From the NCBI GenBank assembly GCA_964550425.1, contig CAZJZB010000003.1, positions 6 to 64,005 of the forward strand: a DNA stretch of 64,000 nucleotides, read 5' to 3'. The notes under the pieces were generated by a model. It saw only the letters and a list, made by a program, of their open reading frames with translations, ran no database searches and was not told the DNA's origin. The position numbers and the translations under genes were made by a program. This DNA comes from an uncultured Candidatus Saccharibacteria bacterium. GTDB taxonomy: Bacteria > Patescibacteriota > Minisyncoccia > Phycocordibacterales > Phycocordibacteraceae. Positions 8,254-48,819 of the stretch are shown here, piece after piece. How positions within the stretch are numbered: position 1 is the stretch's first letter; each line of letters begins with the position of its first letter.

Positions 8254-8317
8254 GTGCGCCTGTACTTCGAAGCCAGATAAATTGTATCTGGCGTAGTAGT
8301 GTGCTATCATGCGCAGG

Positions 8318-23471: not shown

Positions 23472-26400
23472 TTAGAGAGGTTTTAGGTCCTCAATGGCGA
23501 GCGAGGTCTCGCCGTTCCTAACCGACATTTTGCCTTTCAAAAGGAGACATGCTCCCGGCGTAACTACATGGGCGTGTTCTTTGAGGAGTTTTGGGAACAC
23601 AACCGCTTCAATTGAATCACTGAGGTCTTCCACAGTAATGAACGCCATTTTTTCGCCGCTCTTGGTGAGAATGTTTCGCACCAAAATGACGAGAACCGGC
23701 AGGATGACAAGCATCCCCTGTTGCGGTTCTTTCTTTATCTTGGCGATAGAGAACTTCGCTTTCTTTGTGAGTGCTTCATACGCATCGAGCGGATGGCCGC
23801 TTACATAAATCCCAAGCAACTCCTTTTCCCACGCAAGCTTGTCAAGGAGCGAGACAGGCGAACTTTCCGGGAGTGAGAGCGGCGGTGGCGCAATGAGCGT
23901 ACCAAAAAGGGAGTCCTGCGGCGCCAGAGCGGTCGCCTCCCGATGGAAGGCAAGCAAGGTCTCAATGTTTTCAAGGAGCCCGCCGCGCCCACCCTTGGAC
24001 GGGCTCAAAGAATCAAGCGCGCCGCACTTGATGAGCGACTCAAGTGATTTACGGTTAAGGTTTCTCTCTCCAACACGGGAGAGGAAATCAGAAAGAGTTT
24101 TGAAGGGACCGTGCTTCTTTCTCTCTGAAATAATTGCTTCTGAAATCCCCTCGCCGAAGTTCTTGATGGATGAGAGGCCGAAGCGAATCGCATCTTTCTT
24201 CTCGCCCTCGCCCTTCGTAGCTTCAGCGAAGTAGGGGACGACCGTAAAGACACTGCCACTTTCATTCACATCTGGTGGCAAAACAGGGGTACCCATACGT
24301 TTCGCTTCAGCGACAAATATGGATATCTGCTCGGTGTCGCCCGAGTCCGCAGTCAAGAGTGCGGCGAAATATTCGACCGGATAATTCGCTTTCATATAGG
24401 AGGTCTGATAGGCGACTTTCCCATAGCTTGCCGCGTGTGCTTTGTTGAAGCCGTAAGCGGCGAAGGGCTCGATAAGTCCCCATAATATTTCAGCTTTCTC
24501 CGATGACAATTTCCCGAATTCTACGAAACCCTTCAAGAGTTTCTCTTTCTCTGCTTGCATGACAGCAGGAATCTTTTTACCCATCGCTTTGCGAAGTGAG
24601 TCCGCTTCGAGCCACGAATAGCCCGCGAGCTTAATTGCAGTAAGGAGCACATCGTCTTGATAGACGAGGAGGCCGTACGAGAAATCGAGATAATCCTTCA
24701 TGCGCGGATCCACGAAACGGATGAGTTTCGAATTATGCTTACGTTCAATGTATTGCGGGATCGTTTCCATCGGTCCCGGGCGATAGAGGGCGACCATCGC
24801 GTTGATATCGTGAATGGTTGTCGGCCGGAGTTCTTTGAGCCAACGGGTCATGCCGGAGCCGTTCAGCTGGAACGTGCCTTCCGTCTCGCCGCGCGCGAGC
24901 ATCTGGAATGTCTTCAGATCATCGATGGGGATGTTCTCGATATCGACCTCGATGCCTCGCGTCTCGCGTACTCGCGCGACGGCGTCGGCAAGAATGGCGA
25001 GATTCTTGATACCAAGAAAGTCGAACTTCAAGAGCCCGACACCGCCGTATTCGTCGGTGATGGAGTACATATCATATTGCGTGATGAGTTTCCCGGTGCC
25101 TTTTGGATCCGGCTGAATGGGTGTCCATTCTATGAGCGGAGTTGGCGCGACAACGACACCTGCCGCATGGACGCCCACATGCCGCACACAACCTTCAATT
25201 CGTTTCCCGAGGTCAAGTATCTCGCGGGCATCATCGTCCTCCTTATAGAGTGTTTTCAGATCCGGCTCCAGCTCAAGCGCGCGATCAATAGTCATCGGGA
25301 AACCCTGGGATCCTATCGGAATAAGTTTCGCGATGCGGTCGCCGGTCGTGTAGGAATGACCAAGCGCGCGCGCGACGTCGCGCACCGCCGCCCTCGCCAT
25401 CATGGTGCCGAAGGTGCCTATCTGCGCGACATGATCCTCGCCATATTTCCGCTTCGTGTACGCGATCATATCGTCGCGGCGATCATCGGCGATATCCATA
25501 TCTATGTCCGGCGCTTTCGGACGTTCCGGATTGAGGAACCGCTCGAACGGAAGTTTATAGAAAAGAGGATCCACGTTCGTGATGCCGGTGAGATACGCAA
25601 CCAAACTGCCGGCGGCCGATCCGCGCGTGGTGGTGAGGATGCCCTGGCTGCGGGCGAACCCGAGCAGGTCGGCAACGATGAGGTAGTACACCGCAAAACC
25701 CTTATCAATAATGATCTTCAGTTCGTACTCGATACGATCAGTAACTTCTTTTGTCTCTTCGAGTTTGCGTGTGGCGATGCCGGCGTACGCTTTTGCCCGT
25801 AATTCCTCATCGTGATTTTTAAAACCGGGTGATACCGGCACCACGGGGAATGTCCATTTCCCAAGTTCAAAAGACAAATTGCATCGATCGGCGATTTTTC
25901 GCGTATTCTCGATTGCTTCGGGAGTGTCCTTAAAAAATTTCTCAGCAGTTTTTTCACTGATGAAGGAGAAATCCTCGTCTTCATTTCTTCCGCGCTCGCC
26001 CTGCTGGATGCGCCGCATGGTTTCGGTTGCTCCTCGATCGTCAGGGTTCAGGTAGTAGACGTCGTGTTGAGCGACAAGAGGAGCGTCATTTTGACGGGCG
26101 ATTGCGATTATTTTCCGCATTAATTCCTCGTGCCCCTTCACGCGCGGATGATGCGTGATTTCTAAGAACACATTTTCAGCGCCAAAAATATTCCTGAACT
26201 CCGCGAGTGCGGCTGTGGCGCCATCCTTGTCGCTGGCGCGCAACAGCTGCGCTACGTCGCTCGCAAAAGAGGGAAGCAGCGCAACAATTCCCTTATGGTG
26301 TTCGCGCAATAATTCCTTGTCCATACGCGGCCGCTCATAGAATCCTTCCGTCCACGACTTCGTTACGAGCGCGAGAAGATTTTTATAACCCTCATTATTT

Positions 26401-26684
26401 TCTGCGAGGAGTACGATACGCGAGCGTTTTGTGTCGATATTCTGGTCTCGGTCGTGGCGTGACCGTGGTGCGAGATACGCATCAACGCCAAGAATCGGCT
26501 TTATGCCCGCCTTCATCGCGGCTTTGTAGAACTCAATGGCGCCGTGCATATTGCCCCCATCAGTGAGCGCGAGCGCGTCCATCCCTTCTTTCTTCGCTTT
26601 CTCGACCAGCTCGTTCACCTTTGGCAGCGCCTGGAGGAACGTGTAATGCGAATGGGTATGTAAATGGATGAAACGGCTCGTCAT
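23472..26684 (-). CDS. dnaE: DNA polymerase III alpha subunit
   Basis: N-terminal PHP domain (HLHTHSHYTFLQAL), palm/fingers motifs; 1070 aa. Confidence 0.9.
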   Translation of the reverse strand: MTSRFIHLHTHSHYTFLQALPKVNELVEKAKKEGMDALALTDGGNMHGAIEFYKAAMKAGIKPILGVDAYLAPRSRHDRDQNIDTKRSRIVLLAENNEGYKNLLALVTKSWTEGFYERPRMDKELLREHHKGIVALLPSFASDVAQLLRASDKDGATAALAEFRNIFGAENVFLEITHHPRVKGHEELMRKIIAIARQNDAPLVAQHDVYYLNPDDRGATETMRRIQQGERGRNEDEDFSFISEKTAEKFFKDTPEAIENTRKIADRCNLSFELGKWTFPVVPVSPGFKNHDEELRAKAYAGIATRKLEETKEVTDRIEYELKIIIDKGFAVYYLIVADLLGFARSQGILTTTRGSAAGSLVAYLTGITNVDPLFYKLPFERFLNPERPKAPDIDMDIADDRRDDMIAYTKRKYGEDHVAQIGTFGTMMARAAVRDVARALGHSYTTGDRIAKLIPIGSQGFPMTIDRALELEPDLKTLYKEDDDAREILDLGKRIEGCVRHVGVHAAGVVVAPTPLIEWTPIQPDPKGTGKLITQYDMYSITDEYGGVGLLKFDFLGIKNLAILADAVARVRETRGIEVDIENIPIDDLKTFQMLARGETEGTFQLNGSGMTRWLKELRPTTIHDINAMVALYRPGPMETIPQYIERKHNSKLIRFVDPRMKDYLDFSYGLLVYQDDVLLTAIKLAGYSWLEADSLRKAMGKKIPAVMQAEKEKLLKGFVEFGKLSSEKAEILWGLIEPFAAYGFNKAHAASYGKVAYQTSYMKANYPVEYFAALLTADSGDTEQISIFVAEAKRMGTPVLPPDVNESGSVFTVVPYFAEATKGEGEKKDAIRFGLSSIKNFGEGISEAIISERKKHGPFKTLSDFLSRVGERNLNRKSLESLIKCGALDSLSPSKGGRGGLLENIETLLAFHREATALAPQDSLFGTLIAPPPLSLPESSPVSLLDKLAWEKELLGIYVSGHPLDAYEALTKKAKFSIAKIKKEPQQGMLVILPVLVILVRNILTKSGEKMAFITVEDLSDSIEAVVFPKLLKEHAHVVTPGACLLLKGKMSVRNGETSLAIEDLKPL

Positions 26685-37491: not shown

Positions 37492-37833
37492 ATGCGCAAG
37501 GAGCAATGGCGACAAGGAGTCCTCATCAGCATCCTTTTGCTCGCCGCATTCTGGCTCCTGTCGCTTATTATAGGACTCGTCGGGAAGGCGAGAGTGGCAG
37601 TTGGAGAAGCGCATAATGCCCAAGGGCAATATCAGGCGCTTGAGGAGAGGAAAGCGATATTGGAAGGGAATCTTGCCACGCTCGCCACGGAACGTGGACA
37701 GGATGCAGCCACTCGGACAGCTTTTGGGGTTGCGCGGCCGGGAGAAGAGGTTATCGTAGTGGTACCGCCCGATTCGAAGATTCCGACGACGACACCATCC
37801 TGGTGGCAGCAGATATTGGATTGGTTCCAGTAG
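37492..37833 (+). CDS. FtsB/DivIC-like septum-formation initiator (putative)
   Basis: Single TM followed by a short coiled coil (…AHNAQGQYQALEERKAILEGNLATLA…); the stop abuts tRNA-Gly. Confidence 0.4.
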   Translation: MRKEQWRQGVLISILLLAAFWLLSLIIGLVGKARVAVGEAHNAQGQYQALEERKAILEGNLATLATERGQDAATRTAFGVARPGEEVIVVVPPDSKIPTTTPSWWQQILDWFQ

Positions 37834-37903
37834 CGGAATTGGTTTAGTGGTAGAACAGTTGCTTCCCAAGCAACGGGCGGGAGTTCGATTCTCCCATTCC
37901 GCA
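37833..37903 (+). tRNA. tRNA-Gly (anticodon CCC)
   Basis: Manual cloverleaf: acceptor gcggaat/attccgc, anticodon loop ttcccaa, T-loop ttcgatt. Confidence 0.8.
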
Positions 37904-37960
37904 CTACTTCGCTCGATTAGGAAATCGAGCTACGAAGTGCACAGCACAGATGTTTCTGGG
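37904..37960 (+). repeat. tRNA-trailer hairpin element, copy 1 (12-bp stem with UA bulge, AGGA loop, conserved 3' tail)
   Basis: ctacttcgctcGATTaggaAATCgagctacgaagtgcacagcacagatgtttct; paralog at 38489-38545. Confidence 0.7.
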
Positions 37961-38001
37961 GATAACCATACGTGCTATACTCGCCATATAACTTCATGTA
38001 T

Positions 38002-38244
38002 ATGGATAAAACTATCACTATTTATAGCACTCCAACGTGTCACTTCTGCCAAATGACCAAAGATTTTCTTAAGGAAAAAGGTATTGGGTATACCGAGTTT
38101 AATGTCGCAAGCGATTTGGAGAAGCGTCAGGAGATGATTCAGAAATCCGGCCAGATGGGCGTACCCGTCATCTTTATTGGGAATGAAATGATCATCGGTT
38201 TCGACAAGGAGAGGATTGCTACCTACCTCGGCGTCACCGCGTAA
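38002..38244 (+). CDS. glutaredoxin/NrdH-like redoxin
   Basis: TIYSTPTCHFCQ (CxxC) in a glutaredoxin-fold ~80-aa protein; AT-rich; TGCTATACT extended -10 upstream. Confidence 0.7.
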   Translation: MDKTITIYSTPTCHFCQMTKDFLKEKGIGYTEFNVASDLEKRQEMIQKSGQMGVPVIFIGNEMIIGFDKERIATYLGVTA

Positions 38245-38252
38245 TCCGTTCG

Positions 38253-38324
38253 GCCCCTTTAGTTCAATGGATAGAACGGCTCACTCCTAACGAGCTGATT
38301 CAGGTTCGACTCCTGAGAGGGGCA
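38253..38324 (+). tRNA. tRNA-Arg (anticodon CCT)
   Basis: Manual cloverleaf: acceptor gcccctt/gaggggc, D-stem gttc/gaac, anticodon loop ctcctaa (A31-C39 mismatch), T-loop ttcgact. Confidence 0.7.
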
Positions 38325-38474
38325 CAAAAAGTGCGAAGCAATTTTTGTGCCCCTAGCACGCCTGGGAGGCGTGCGTCCAGGAGTCGAAAACCTTGCGAGT
38401 ATACTGAGGAGCTTTGTGACGAATGTATCCGCAAGGTGTACTGACCCTGTAAGGGTCGACAAGCGTACTCGCGG

Positions 38475-38545
38475 TCCTGAGAGGGGCACTACTTCGCTCC
38501 GTTCGGAAACGGAGCTACGAAGTGCAAGCACCAAATGTGTTAGAA
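38475..38545 (+). repeat. 14-nt direct duplicate of the tRNA-Arg 3' end (tcctgagaggggca) followed by tRNA-trailer hairpin element copy 2
   Basis: 38475-38488 is identical to 38311-38324. Then ctacttcgctcCGTTcggaAACGgagctacgaagtgcaagcaccaaatgtgtta, which differs from copy 1 by compensatory stem changes. Confidence 0.7.
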
Positions 38546-38555
38546 TAGAAGCCAT

Positions 38556-38837
38556 ATGGACCCAGAACTGAAACGTGAGCTTGAAGAGATACACGCGCTT
38601 GCGAAGGATAATCATCATATGCTGCGCGCCATTCGGCGCCACCAATGGTACGGTTTCGTGGGAAAAATCATTATCTGGATCGTCGTACTCGCCTTGCCGC
38701 TCTATTTCTATCAGCAGTATCTGGAGCCGCTCGTCTCTCAATTCTCTGCGATTCCTGGAGCAACTACCTCTGGCGTCTTCGGTATTCCGACTACTGCCGA
38801 ACTGCAGAAATTACTGAGTTCATTTCAGGGGAAATAA
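38556..38837 (+). CDS. hypothetical small membrane protein
   Basis: One TM helix (IIIWIVVLALPLYFY); TGTTAGAAT extended -10 lies 9 nt upstream. Confidence 0.4.
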   Translation: MDPELKRELEEIHALAKDNHHMLRAIRRHQWYGFVGKIIIWIVVLALPLYFYQQYLEPLVSQFSAIPGATTSGVFGIPTTAELQKLLSSFQGK

Positions 38838-38894: not shown

Positions 38895-39593
38895 ATGAAT
38901 GCGGTACGATCTCGCGCGTTGCGTCTACGTCTCTTTGGAAAGAGTTATAAGGAGATTTCCATGGAGCTCGACGTACCGAAATCGACGCTCTCAGGATGGT
39001 TCAAACATATCGTGTTGTCAGATAAGGCGCGCATCCGTCTCGCGTTGAGGACTCGTCTCGGCAGTGCAACGCTGATAAAGCGCAATAAGATGCAGACGCA
39101 CGAAGCAGAGCAACGTGCGCGTAAGTTGCGCGCATCTGCGAAGGGAAGGGTTCCCATTCTAACCAAGCGCGACATGCTTATAATCGGTACGACCTTGTAT
39201 TGGGCAGAAGGGTATAAACGCCTTCACATTCGAGACGGGAAAGAACGGATGAGTCATTCGATCAGTTTTGTGAATTCAGATCCCGCCATGATAAAAGCGT
39301 TTTTGCGTTTCTTGTTCGAAGTGCTTGCTATCCCTCGTGACGCGATACATCTAACCATGCGTCTCCATCCGCATATCAACGAAGAGCATGCGCGTATATA
39401 TTGGATGAATGTCACAAAACTGCCTCCCACCTGTTTTCAACGGACAACCAACATGGTGAGCATAGCGAGCAAAGGGAAGCGTCCTTACAATCGTTTGCCG
39501 AACGGTACGCTTCAAGTTGCGGTGTACGATACGGCAAAATTCCACTACCTTTTAGGTCTTATAGAAGGCGTACAAACAAGGTTCCAAGTATGA
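38895..39593 (+). CDS. HTH-domain protein with possible LAGLIDADG-like homing-endonuclease fold
   Basis: N-terminal LFGKSYKEISMELDVPKSTLSGWFK (HTH), then IIGTTLYWAEGYK … SFVNSDPAMIKAFLRFL, reminiscent of LAGLIDADG-type modules. The endonuclease assignment is tentative. Confidence 0.35.
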   Translation: MNAVRSRALRLRLFGKSYKEISMELDVPKSTLSGWFKHIVLSDKARIRLALRTRLGSATLIKRNKMQTHEAEQRARKLRASAKGRVPILTKRDMLIIGTTLYWAEGYKRLHIRDGKERMSHSISFVNSDPAMIKAFLRFLFEVLAIPRDAIHLTMRLHPHINEEHARIYWMNVTKLPPTCFQRTTNMVSIASKGKRPYNRLPNGTLQVAVYDTAKFHYLLGLIEGVQTRFQV

Positions 39594-48685: not shown

Positions 48686-48747
48686 AGGAAGGGAAGCAAC
48701 TAAGTTTGTGACCCTATCGGGACCGCTTTTTGCTGCGCCAAAATCTG

Positions 48748-48819
48748 TGACCCTACCGGGAGTCGGACCCGGGTTTAGAGCTTGAAAAGCTCTCGTCCTA
48801 ACCGTTAGACGATAGGGCC
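48748..48819 (-). tRNA. tRNA-Glu (anticodon TTC)
   Basis: Reverse complement gives acceptor ggcccta/tagggtc (one G-U), D-stem gtct/ggac, anticodon loop ttttcaa, T-loop tccgact. Confidence 0.75.

Follow-up and report, generated by a model that had tools for sequence, protein, structure and literature searches.

Introduction

Repetitive extragenic palindromes (REPs) carry a GTAG-type head immediately 5' of the hairpin. The seg genes of phage T4 encode free-standing GIY-YIG homing endonucleases, with SegB located in the T4 tRNA cluster. For another group of small palindromes, the Rickettsia palindromic elements (RPEs), we know of no nuclease partner. The subject of this report is a hairpin that resembles each of these in part and that directly follows tRNA sequence at two sites in a stretch of 64,000 nt from an uncultured Candidatus Saccharibacteria bacterium. 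This whole stretch is referred to as the window, and the coordinates of window features are counted on it; L-numbers designate the loci and contexts with which it was compared. The host is bacterial, as the window encodes LepA and MurJ, and by synteny it belongs with Paceibacterota-like Patescibacteria. Both hairpins are probably non-autonomous, solo derivatives of a mobile DNA element that is small and palindromic, the full form of which is a cassette encoding a GIY-YIG protein.

Two hairpins adjoin tRNA 3' ends in the window

An original prediction made from the sequence of the window held that the same element lies directly after tRNA-Gly and again after a duplicated 3' end of tRNA-Arg, and both copies are present as claimed. 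The features concerned are the following.

37833-37903, forward strand: tRNA-Gly(ccc), detected by ARAGORN and Rfam
37904-37941, forward strand: core of hairpin copy 1, CTACTTCGCTCGATTAGGAAATCGAGCTACGAAGTGCA, directly 3' of A37903
37904-37947, forward strand: hairpin copy 1 including its 3' flank, solo (covariance model 67.6 bits, E=3e-20)
38253-38324, forward strand: tRNA-Arg(cct), intact, detected by ARAGORN and Rfam
38475-38488, forward strand: duplicate of the final 14 nt of tRNA-Arg, TCCTGAGAGGGGCA (nt 60-73)
38489-38526, forward strand: core of hairpin copy 2, CTACTTCGCTCCGTTCGGAAACGGAGCTACGAAGTGCA, directly 3' of the 14-nt tRNA-Arg duplicate
38489-38531, forward strand: hairpin copy 2 including its 3' flank, solo (covariance model 69.7 bits, E=6e-21)

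The discriminator of tRNA-Gly(ccc) is A37903, and 37904, which had been given as the end of the tRNA gene, is instead the first base of copy 1. The segments of copy 1 at 37904-37941 are CTACTTCG-CTCGATTAGGAAATCGAG-CTACGAAGTGCA, and its layout consists of a CTAC-TTCG arm, the inner hairpin CTCGATT-AGGA-AATCGAG, a CTAC-GAAG-TGCA arm and CA-GCAC. The GCAC at the right end repeats the GCAC of the left junction. Copy 2 has the same arms around CTCCGTTCGGAAACGGAG, with the inner hairpin CTCCGTT-CGGA-AACGGAG and a 3' A-GCAC. The intact tRNA-Arg gene carries its own final 14 nt at 38311-38324 and is separated from the duplicate by 150 nt (38325-38474); the duplicate at 38475-38488 is the displaced original 3' end of tRNA-Arg.

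The inner stems of the two copies differ by two compensatory pairs (G-C to C-G and A-U to G-C) and the loops read AGGA and CGGA, while the arms and the 3' flank (N)GCAC are common to both, as the original prediction had observed for stems and flanks alike. A 2-nt UA bulge that had been described is actually a bulge of 3 nt, or else part of a 4x4 internal loop. The hairpin pattern has 0 matches in 100 shuffled windows, and both hairpins are more stable than shuffled sequence (folding z about -3). Neither is followed by a U tract and a terminator scan calls neither, which agrees with the earlier statement that they are not canonical intrinsic terminators. The same arrangement occurs in independent assemblies (L137-L139), two of which (L138 and L139) share the sequence of copy 2, and it is therefore not an assembly artefact.

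A hairpin family at the ends of tRNA and tmRNA genes

One pattern scan of a genome collection returned 46 loci and one of a metagenome collection returned 74 loci; with chance matches in coding sequence removed, the pattern-scan set comprises 75 distinct copies that form the hairpin. A covariance model built from 21 copies gives 145 matches in the fetched loci and finds two extra copies in the window (see below). Based on the pattern scans and the covariance model, the family holds about 100 distinct copies overall, mostly in Patescibacteria. The original prediction allowed that the two copies could be a local duplication and nothing else, a possibility which is ruled out by over 100 copies elsewhere.

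In 44 of the 75 copies the element starts at the base after the 3' end of a tRNA or transfer-messenger RNA (tmRNA) gene, and three others face the opposite way and are separated from a tRNA 5' end by a single A. Of the remaining copies, most are cut by a contig end, follow duplicated tRNA ends, lie in tandem or belong to Planctomycete or Doudnabacteria subfamilies. At least 11 amino-acid specificities carry the element (Arg, Gly, Ile, Leu, Lys, Met, Phe, Val, Ala, Thr and Trp), as does tmRNA. The junction at the tRNA end always reads CA|CTAC. Where the discriminator is not A, and sometimes even where it is, an extra C74-A75 precedes the element. The junction thus falls after position 73 or 75 depending on where CA occurs, which indicates that the anchor is the CA dinucleotide rather than position 73. 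Only two of the seven tRNAs of the window carry the element, and few of the non-triggering tRNAs in the fetched loci do so. With regard to CCA in general, most tRNA genes in the Patescibacteria loci encode just C74 (often followed by A) after the discriminator; in the window the tRNAs Phe, Val and Ser encode the full CCA and the tRNAs Gly, Arg, Thr and Glu do not.

The Planctomycete/Phycisphaerae subfamily (L021, L027-L029, L058, L063, L071, L075, L084, L100 and L107) has the inner hairpin CGAAGC-GAT-GCTTCG and occupies a repeated host motif, ATCCA(A/G)CA-GNCGGCAAGGAA...GTGAACGGC, where its insertion point follows ...ATCCAACA; neither a tRNA nor a GIY-YIG gene was seen close by. Six Doudnabacteria loci (L032, L046, L060, L087, L099 and L120) hold several copies each, none at a tRNA, and each copy is preceded by a similar ...CACCGCCGCC... 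sequence, which possibly represents the ends of paralogous genes.

At the Rfam gathering threshold only tRNAs are matched, and the hairpin and the 150-nt insert remain unmatched up to an E value of 10. A scan of viral contigs gave one match, which lies in coding sequence, does not form the hairpin and is thus taken as a chance match; an origin from phage was rejected on this basis. Sequence and keyword searches of a literature library found no description of the element.

Structure of the hairpin

Covariation was assessed in an alignment (A3) of 105 distinct rows with shuffled and slid controls. The inner helix in A3 is 96.6% paired, and both sides are changed at seven of seven pairs. One pair of the outer helix is AU in 77 cases, CG in 19, UA in 2 and GC in 1. 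All of the shuffled and slid controls lie far under the observed covariation values. The conserved core is 5'-(U/C)AC-UUCG...CU(A/U)C-GAAG-3', within which the sequence of the inner hairpin is free. Two drawings of this core are possible, one a UUCG/CGAA helix flanked by staggered bulges of 3 nt each, the other a longer outer helix that contains a 4x4 internal loop, UUCG/CUAC; A3 fits both drawings and the divergent relatives favour the 4x4 loop. A kink-turn was considered and rejected, as the G·A pairs that it needs are absent from the strand opposite the bulge.

Where the element adjoins a tRNA, the tRNA's own G-C-A and the C after it serve as the 5' strand of the outer helix, a strand to which the GUGC of the 3' arm is complementary; in copy 1 this strand is the terminal G-C-A of tRNA-Gly and the C that follows it. 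Copies away from tRNAs have outer helices of GCCC/GGGC, GUCC/GGAC, GCUC/GAGC or GCGC/GCGC. In distant relatives the core UUCG opposite CU(A/U/C)C is kept and the outer helix is altered to suit the tRNA end, as in L126, where UCCCCC/GGGGGA pairs with U73, and L127, where CACUGC/GCAGUG follows a tmRNA. Variants with CAC as the bulge also occur, and in these the tRNA has an encoded CCA. The element ends ...GTGCA(N)GCA, so that a target-like GCA(C) recurs at its right end.

Presence and absence at orthologous sites

Comparison of orthologous sites shows the hairpin as a discrete insertion with GCA(C) at both junctions. The site after tRNA-Arg(cct) is filled in the window and bare in L041, L059, L078 and L089, and tRNA-Gly(ccc) is bare in L078. 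L005 carries the element after tRNA-Val(tac), with GCAC at both junctions, and in L006 and L052 this site is empty. The Planctomycete locus L063 has a filled and an empty copy of the repeated host motif side by side. Three states are found at the site between tRNA-Phe and a DUF2914 gene: empty in the window (39683/39689), hairpin alone in L104 and L116, and hairpin plus a GIY-YIG gene of 78 aa in L041, L059, L078 and L089, so that six relatives carry the element after tRNA-Phe and the window does not. The hairpin also occurs as a tandem triplet with a 46-nt period after tRNA-Ala (L098, 12098-12231, reverse strand). In two contigs of one metagenome-assembled genome, the start of L014 and the end of L019 both lie inside the same hairpin sequence, which suggests assembly breaks at a multi-copy repeat.

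A small GIY-YIG gene is linked to the hairpin

In related genomes a cassette of about 370 bp has the hairpin at its left end, followed by a spacer of about 40-60 nt, an inverted short hairpin or hairpins, a -10 box and a GIY-YIG gene. The cassette has one or two such inverted short copies, of the form ...AGCGAAGTAG-CCCTTCGTAG-CCC....GGG-CGAAGTAG-GGC. Its open reading frame (ORF) begins MHYVYILQD...YVGYS.DLK.RL and encodes a GIY-YIG domain of 77-80 aa (Pfam PF01541, E=1e-13 to 3e-14 in related loci), for which the closest solved structure is UPF0213 protein BH0048. The loci contain 29 GIY-YIG matches, and in 26 of these a hairpin lies on the same strand within 300 nt upstream. The distance from the end of the hairpin to the start codon ranges from 72 to 173 nt and is most often 93-99 nt, a spacing that holds across different tRNAs, and many of the genes have an inverted short hairpin 8-20 nt upstream.

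As a control for circularity, GIY-YIG homologues were gathered first and eight of their contexts were fetched without reference to the hairpin. A tRNA or tmRNA was detected just upstream in six of the eight, and in a seventh (L129-L131) SmpB precedes a tmRNA-like end with a hairpin tail. The hairpin is detectable with the model in five of the eight, four of which adjoin a tRNA, tmRNA or tmRNA-like end; no tRNA was detected upstream in the fifth (L123). The more divergent contexts carry recognisable variants of the hairpin. The contexts fetched blind in this way confirm the link between hairpin and GIY-YIG gene.

Further copies in the window

The two additional copies found with the covariance model bring the total in the window to four, two strong and two weaker.

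24209-24238, reverse strand: 30-nt short version, CCCC-TAC-TTCG-CT-GA-AG-CTA-CGAA-GGGC, in frame in dnaE (covariance model 25.2 bits, E=6e-6)
8261-8303, reverse strand: degenerate copy, CACA-CTA-CTACG-CCAGATA...TATCTGG-CTT-CGAAG-TACA (covariance model 15.0 bits, E=0.017; weak)

The dnaE ORF extends from 23472 to 26684, and the 30-nt insertion contributes PYFAEATKGE to the alpha subunit of DNA polymerase III. The closest dnaE homologues, which are 85-87% identical, read FTVVGE(K/Q)(K/R)D without the 10-aa insert, and Taq Pol III alpha is likewise without it. The degenerate copy lies between two genes of the forward strand and is therefore antisense to local transcription.

Neighbouring features

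Three further features lie close to copies 1 and 2.

37976-37981, forward strand: TATACT, a -10-like box after TGC, for a glutaredoxin gene (ATG at 38002; Pfam Glutaredoxin), read from the sequence
38541-38546, forward strand: TAGAAT, a -10-like box with TGT upstream, 9 nt before ATG 38556 of a gene for a 93-aa protein, read from the sequence
38325-38474, forward strand: 150-nt insertion, a second recurrent family, between tRNA-Arg and its displaced 3' end

Copy 1 sits between tRNA-Gly and the TATACT box, which is the putative promoter of the glutaredoxin gene, and the orthologous arrangement is found in L097. The TAGAAT box would likewise serve as promoter of the 93-aa gene. The tRNA-Arg orthologues in L041, L059, L078 and L089 keep a TAGAAT or TATACT box and the 93-aa gene in the absence of the hairpin, and the box is at about the same distance from the start of this gene in relatives. 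In the window (38541-38558, TGTTAGAAT) the box is merely 9 nt ahead of the ATG, which suggests that the mRNA of the 93-aa gene is leaderless or has a very short leader.

The 150-nt insert contains an A/T-flanked hairpin with a GCGAAGC loop, further hairpins, and an antisense copy of the 3' strands of the tRNA acceptor and T arm that is split by a GC hairpin. Together with the 14-nt duplicate (38325-38488) it can form a fold that resembles an acceptor plus T stem. At least 10 loci have homologous inserts after a tmRNA or after tRNAs for Leu, Gly, Arg, Met, Ile, Tyr and Trp, and most of these inserts share the conserved core GAA(A/C)GCCGGAGCG-hairpin-CGCGAGGYRGGGTCG; the insert is absent at the orthologous tRNA-Arg in L041, L059, L078 and L089. 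It may be an integration scar, a tRNA-like RNA or another mobile element. A hammerhead-like CUGAGGAG...CGAA in the insert was rejected as a ribozyme, as it lacks helix II and does not recur in the homologous inserts. A similar arrangement is found at tRNA-Glu(ttc) (48709-48761, reverse strand), which is followed by a 25-nt hairpin-like spacer, CAGATTTTGGCGCAGCAAAAAGCGG, and then by its last 14 nt once more in almost identical form (TCCCGATAGGGTCA versus TCCCGGTAGGGTCA); it looks like a miniature of the arrangement at tRNA-Arg.

Between the 93-aa gene and tRNA-Phe lies an ORF of 232 aa (38895-39593, forward strand) with only a weak N-terminal match to a helix-turn-helix domain. Its LYWAEGYK stretch recalls the LAGLIDADG motif, which Pfam does not confirm. 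The ORF is 210 aa long in L138 and L139, and L041 has just 12 nt at this site, from which the ORF is taken to be a lineage-specific insertion.

Alternative explanations

From the compensatory changes the original prediction concluded that selection acts on RNA rather than DNA, and it proposed either a signal for processing or protection of tRNA 3' trailers or a small-RNA gene family that hitch-hikes on tRNA promoters. A broader form of the first proposal, in which the hairpin is mainly a functional RNA, is the main rival to mobile DNA. As a tRNA 3' trailer the hairpin would end or insulate transcription, shield the precursor from 3' exonucleases or direct 3' processing; CUA in place of CCA would permit cleavage by RNase Z, and the spread among tRNAs would reflect selection for function. 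Such a role would account for the exact abutment and strong co-orientation with tRNAs and tmRNA, for an outer helix that pairs with and adapts to the 3'-terminal bases of the tRNA, for orthologous copies retained with compensatory changes, for the position of both main window copies between a tRNA and the next -10 box, and for the variants in which a CAC bulge yields an encoded CCA. However, conservation of the hairpin is equally expected of a site recognised as single-stranded DNA or as a cruciform, so that covariation does not reveal which molecule is selected. The G·U pairs, 31 on the tRNA strand versus 43 on the other, show no strand bias; the minus strand is systematically more stable by 2.3 kcal/mol, a difference which stems from the conserved arms and is uninformative. 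A general trailer signal would not be expected to be confined to a minority of tRNAs, to leave orthologous tRNAs bare or to shift its junction between positions 73 and 75 with a CA anchor that is not the RNase Z cleavage site, nor would it be expected in reverse at tRNA 5' ends, antisense between genes or in frame in dnaE. The hairpins also lack the U tract found in the canonical terminators that occur in the same lineage (L041). These observations point to DNA-level mobility in preference to an obligatory RNA processing signal, and we regard a mainly RNA function as rather improbable, although mobility and a trailer role could occur together, in view of the co-orientation and of the orthologues that are retained. 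What stands of the original prediction is the hairpin family adjoining tRNA 3' ends and, among the proposed roles, the hitch-hiking, which comes closest to the evidence; in place of a small-RNA gene there appears to be a mobile DNA cassette, and the compensatory changes, abundant across the family, do not single out RNA.

Explanations that accept a DNA element but assign it to other machinery fare less well. It is conceivable, though unlikely, that the hairpin is an element similar to a REP or a miniature inverted-repeat transposable element (MITE) which is moved by a single-strand HUH/Y1 transposase of the REP-associated tyrosine transposase (RAYT) or IS200/IS605 kind, with GUG as guide to CAC and the GIY-YIG gene as an unrelated neighbour in the same niche. 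The minus strand does have GTAG immediately 5' of the hairpin as in REPs, insertion is on the 3' side of a short target whose sequence recurs at the right end with no other obvious duplication, and long and short copies form inverted doublets. Yet a tblastn search with E. coli RayT of about 0.86 Mb of loci plus the window gave no match (best E=1.8), the distance to the start of the GIY-YIG gene is nearly constant whichever tRNA is involved, which speaks for a single unit, and a target of 3-4 nt alone cannot explain the preference for tRNA ends. Integrase-mediated integration, for which tRNA 3' ends are classic sites, could leave scars or attachment sites, and the 14-nt direct repeat that flanks the 150-nt insert beside copy 2 would be a parallel to the short GCA(C) repeats that flank the hairpin. 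This origin is very unlikely for the hairpins themselves, since the repeat is just 3-4 nt, the same arms occur at many tRNAs, inside an ORF and in Planctomycete repeats, the covariation indicates constraint on the hairpin itself, and the viral contigs hold no true copy. The bulge-helix-bulge motif cut by the archaeal-type splicing endonuclease has two 3-nt bulges 4 bp apart, and the forward strand does have these, GCAC-[UAC]-UUCG...[CUA]-CGAA-GUGC, and can be drawn as a 4-bp GCAC/GUGC helix, a 3-nt bulge, a 4-bp UUCG/CGAA helix, a second 3-nt bulge and a helix. The bulges are mirrored, however, each lying 5' of the central helix on its strand, so that the canonical topology is found only on the antisense strand; the host is bacterial, divergent relatives agree better with the 4x4 loop, and the motif is so strongly disfavoured as to be scarcely credible.

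A probable mobile element with a proposed GIY-YIG partner

The explanation that we prefer, and consider fairly probable, is that the window hairpins are solo, non-autonomous copies of the mobile element represented in full by the GIY-YIG cassette. Several observations weigh against it or fit other views as well. There is no GIY-YIG homologue in the 64-kb window; the hairpins there are accordingly solo copies, and their link to the gene rests on homology to other genomes. The 78-aa protein is a catalytic domain only, with no DNA-binding domain. The loci were picked by the element's own sequence, which biases the frequencies by ascertainment, and a trailer RNA would likewise be expected to lie mostly in the orientation of the tRNAs, as 44 copies versus 3 do. 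The filled and empty pairs and the CA|CTAC...GCA(C) ends fit target-adjacent insertion without duplication and a 3-4-nt duplication alike, and the candidate insertion chemistries include target duplication, single-strand 'peel and paste' and homing with repair. Orthologous copies are retained with compensatory changes, for example after tRNA-Arg(tct) in L005, L015, L052 and L090; such retention, together with conservation of the arms across very distant phyla, would also fit an RNA or DNA function that benefits the host.

If the hairpins are mobile DNA, the element would insert immediately 3' of CA at the very end of tRNA and tmRNA genes (CA|CTAC...), with the insertion site supplying the 5' strand of the outer helix. 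Folded as single-stranded DNA or as a cruciform, the hairpin would present, through its conserved core, a putative cis site for a nuclease, most likely the linked GIY-YIG protein, which would then have a role in moving it. Pairing of GUG in the 3' arm with CAC in the target may help in the choice of site. The copies in the window may persist without a nuclease gene nearby, and an inserted hairpin may insulate the tRNA from the next promoter.

A more specific proposal, which we offer tentatively as one possibility, is that the hairpin and the 78-aa GIY-YIG protein make up a mobile element that is autonomous (a 'GIY-YIG REPtron'). The nuclease, minimal and structure-specific, would read the UUCG/CUAC core of the folded DNA hairpin, the 3' arm would pair with the terminal CAC of the tRNA and thereby guide insertion at tRNA and tmRNA ends across Patescibacteria and beyond, and solo hairpins would be the non-autonomous offspring. 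If this is true, the tiny genomes of the candidate phyla radiation (CPR)/Patescibacteria harbour small, active mobile elements that target tRNA and tmRNA genes at their ends, the partner gene is among the smallest nuclease genes known, and the numerous orphan genes annotated in these genomes as 'GIY-YIG nuclease family' acquire a function. It would further account for assembly breaks beside tRNAs and for the presence in predicted proteins of odd peptides such as PYFAKATKG, and would provide a testable case of insertion guided by structure or by base pairing. As a caution, covariation in a hairpin next to a tRNA need not imply RNA function.

Comparison with known systems

The system departs from REP/RAYT, GIY-YIG homing genes and RPEs in the features that define them, namely a Y1 transposase, which the RayT query did not find in the loci or the window, a DNA-binding domain, which is absent, and the RPE sequence, to which the element is unrelated. 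Intrinsic terminators after tRNA genes are similar in that a stable RNA gene is directly followed by a stable hairpin, which precedes the next promoter, but the element has no U tract, has a conserved internal-loop sequence and occurs in ORFs and in reverse. Like IS200/IS605 and its hairpin-only derivatives, it has hairpin ends, inserts 3' of a short target, has a target-like right end and may pair with its target; unlike them it is a single hairpin of 30-57 nt with a preference for tRNA ends, and no TnpA or TnpB was found nearby, RayT being the sole Y1 query. The in-frame copy in dnaE is reminiscent of the small palindromes that RPEs place in protein genes, although sequence and host are unrelated and most copies of the present element are at tRNA ends. 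As with free-standing GIY-YIG homing genes, the gene is present or absent between conserved neighbours, lies beside tRNAs and has its own promoter. It differs from them in encoding the catalytic domain only, in always having a hairpin in the cassette, in the occurrence of the hairpin alone and in the use of many tRNAs.

The likeness to the REP/REPIN-RAYT systems of E. coli and Pseudomonas extends to short, imperfect repeated palindromes with a conserved short head beside a variable hairpin, to inverted doublets, to a small nuclease gene flanked by palindromes and to many solo copies. Here, by contrast, the partner is a 78-aa GIY-YIG protein in place of an HUH/Y1 enzyme (no RayT homologue was found in the loci or the window), the targets are the 3' ends of tRNA and tmRNA genes, and the arms are common across phyla and not species-specific. 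A possible counterpart of the GT(A/G)G head of REPs is the GTAG on the minus strand, which reads ...TTCGTAG|CTC-hairpin and, in the short copies, CGAAGTAG; the GTAG is embedded in a longer core of different architecture.

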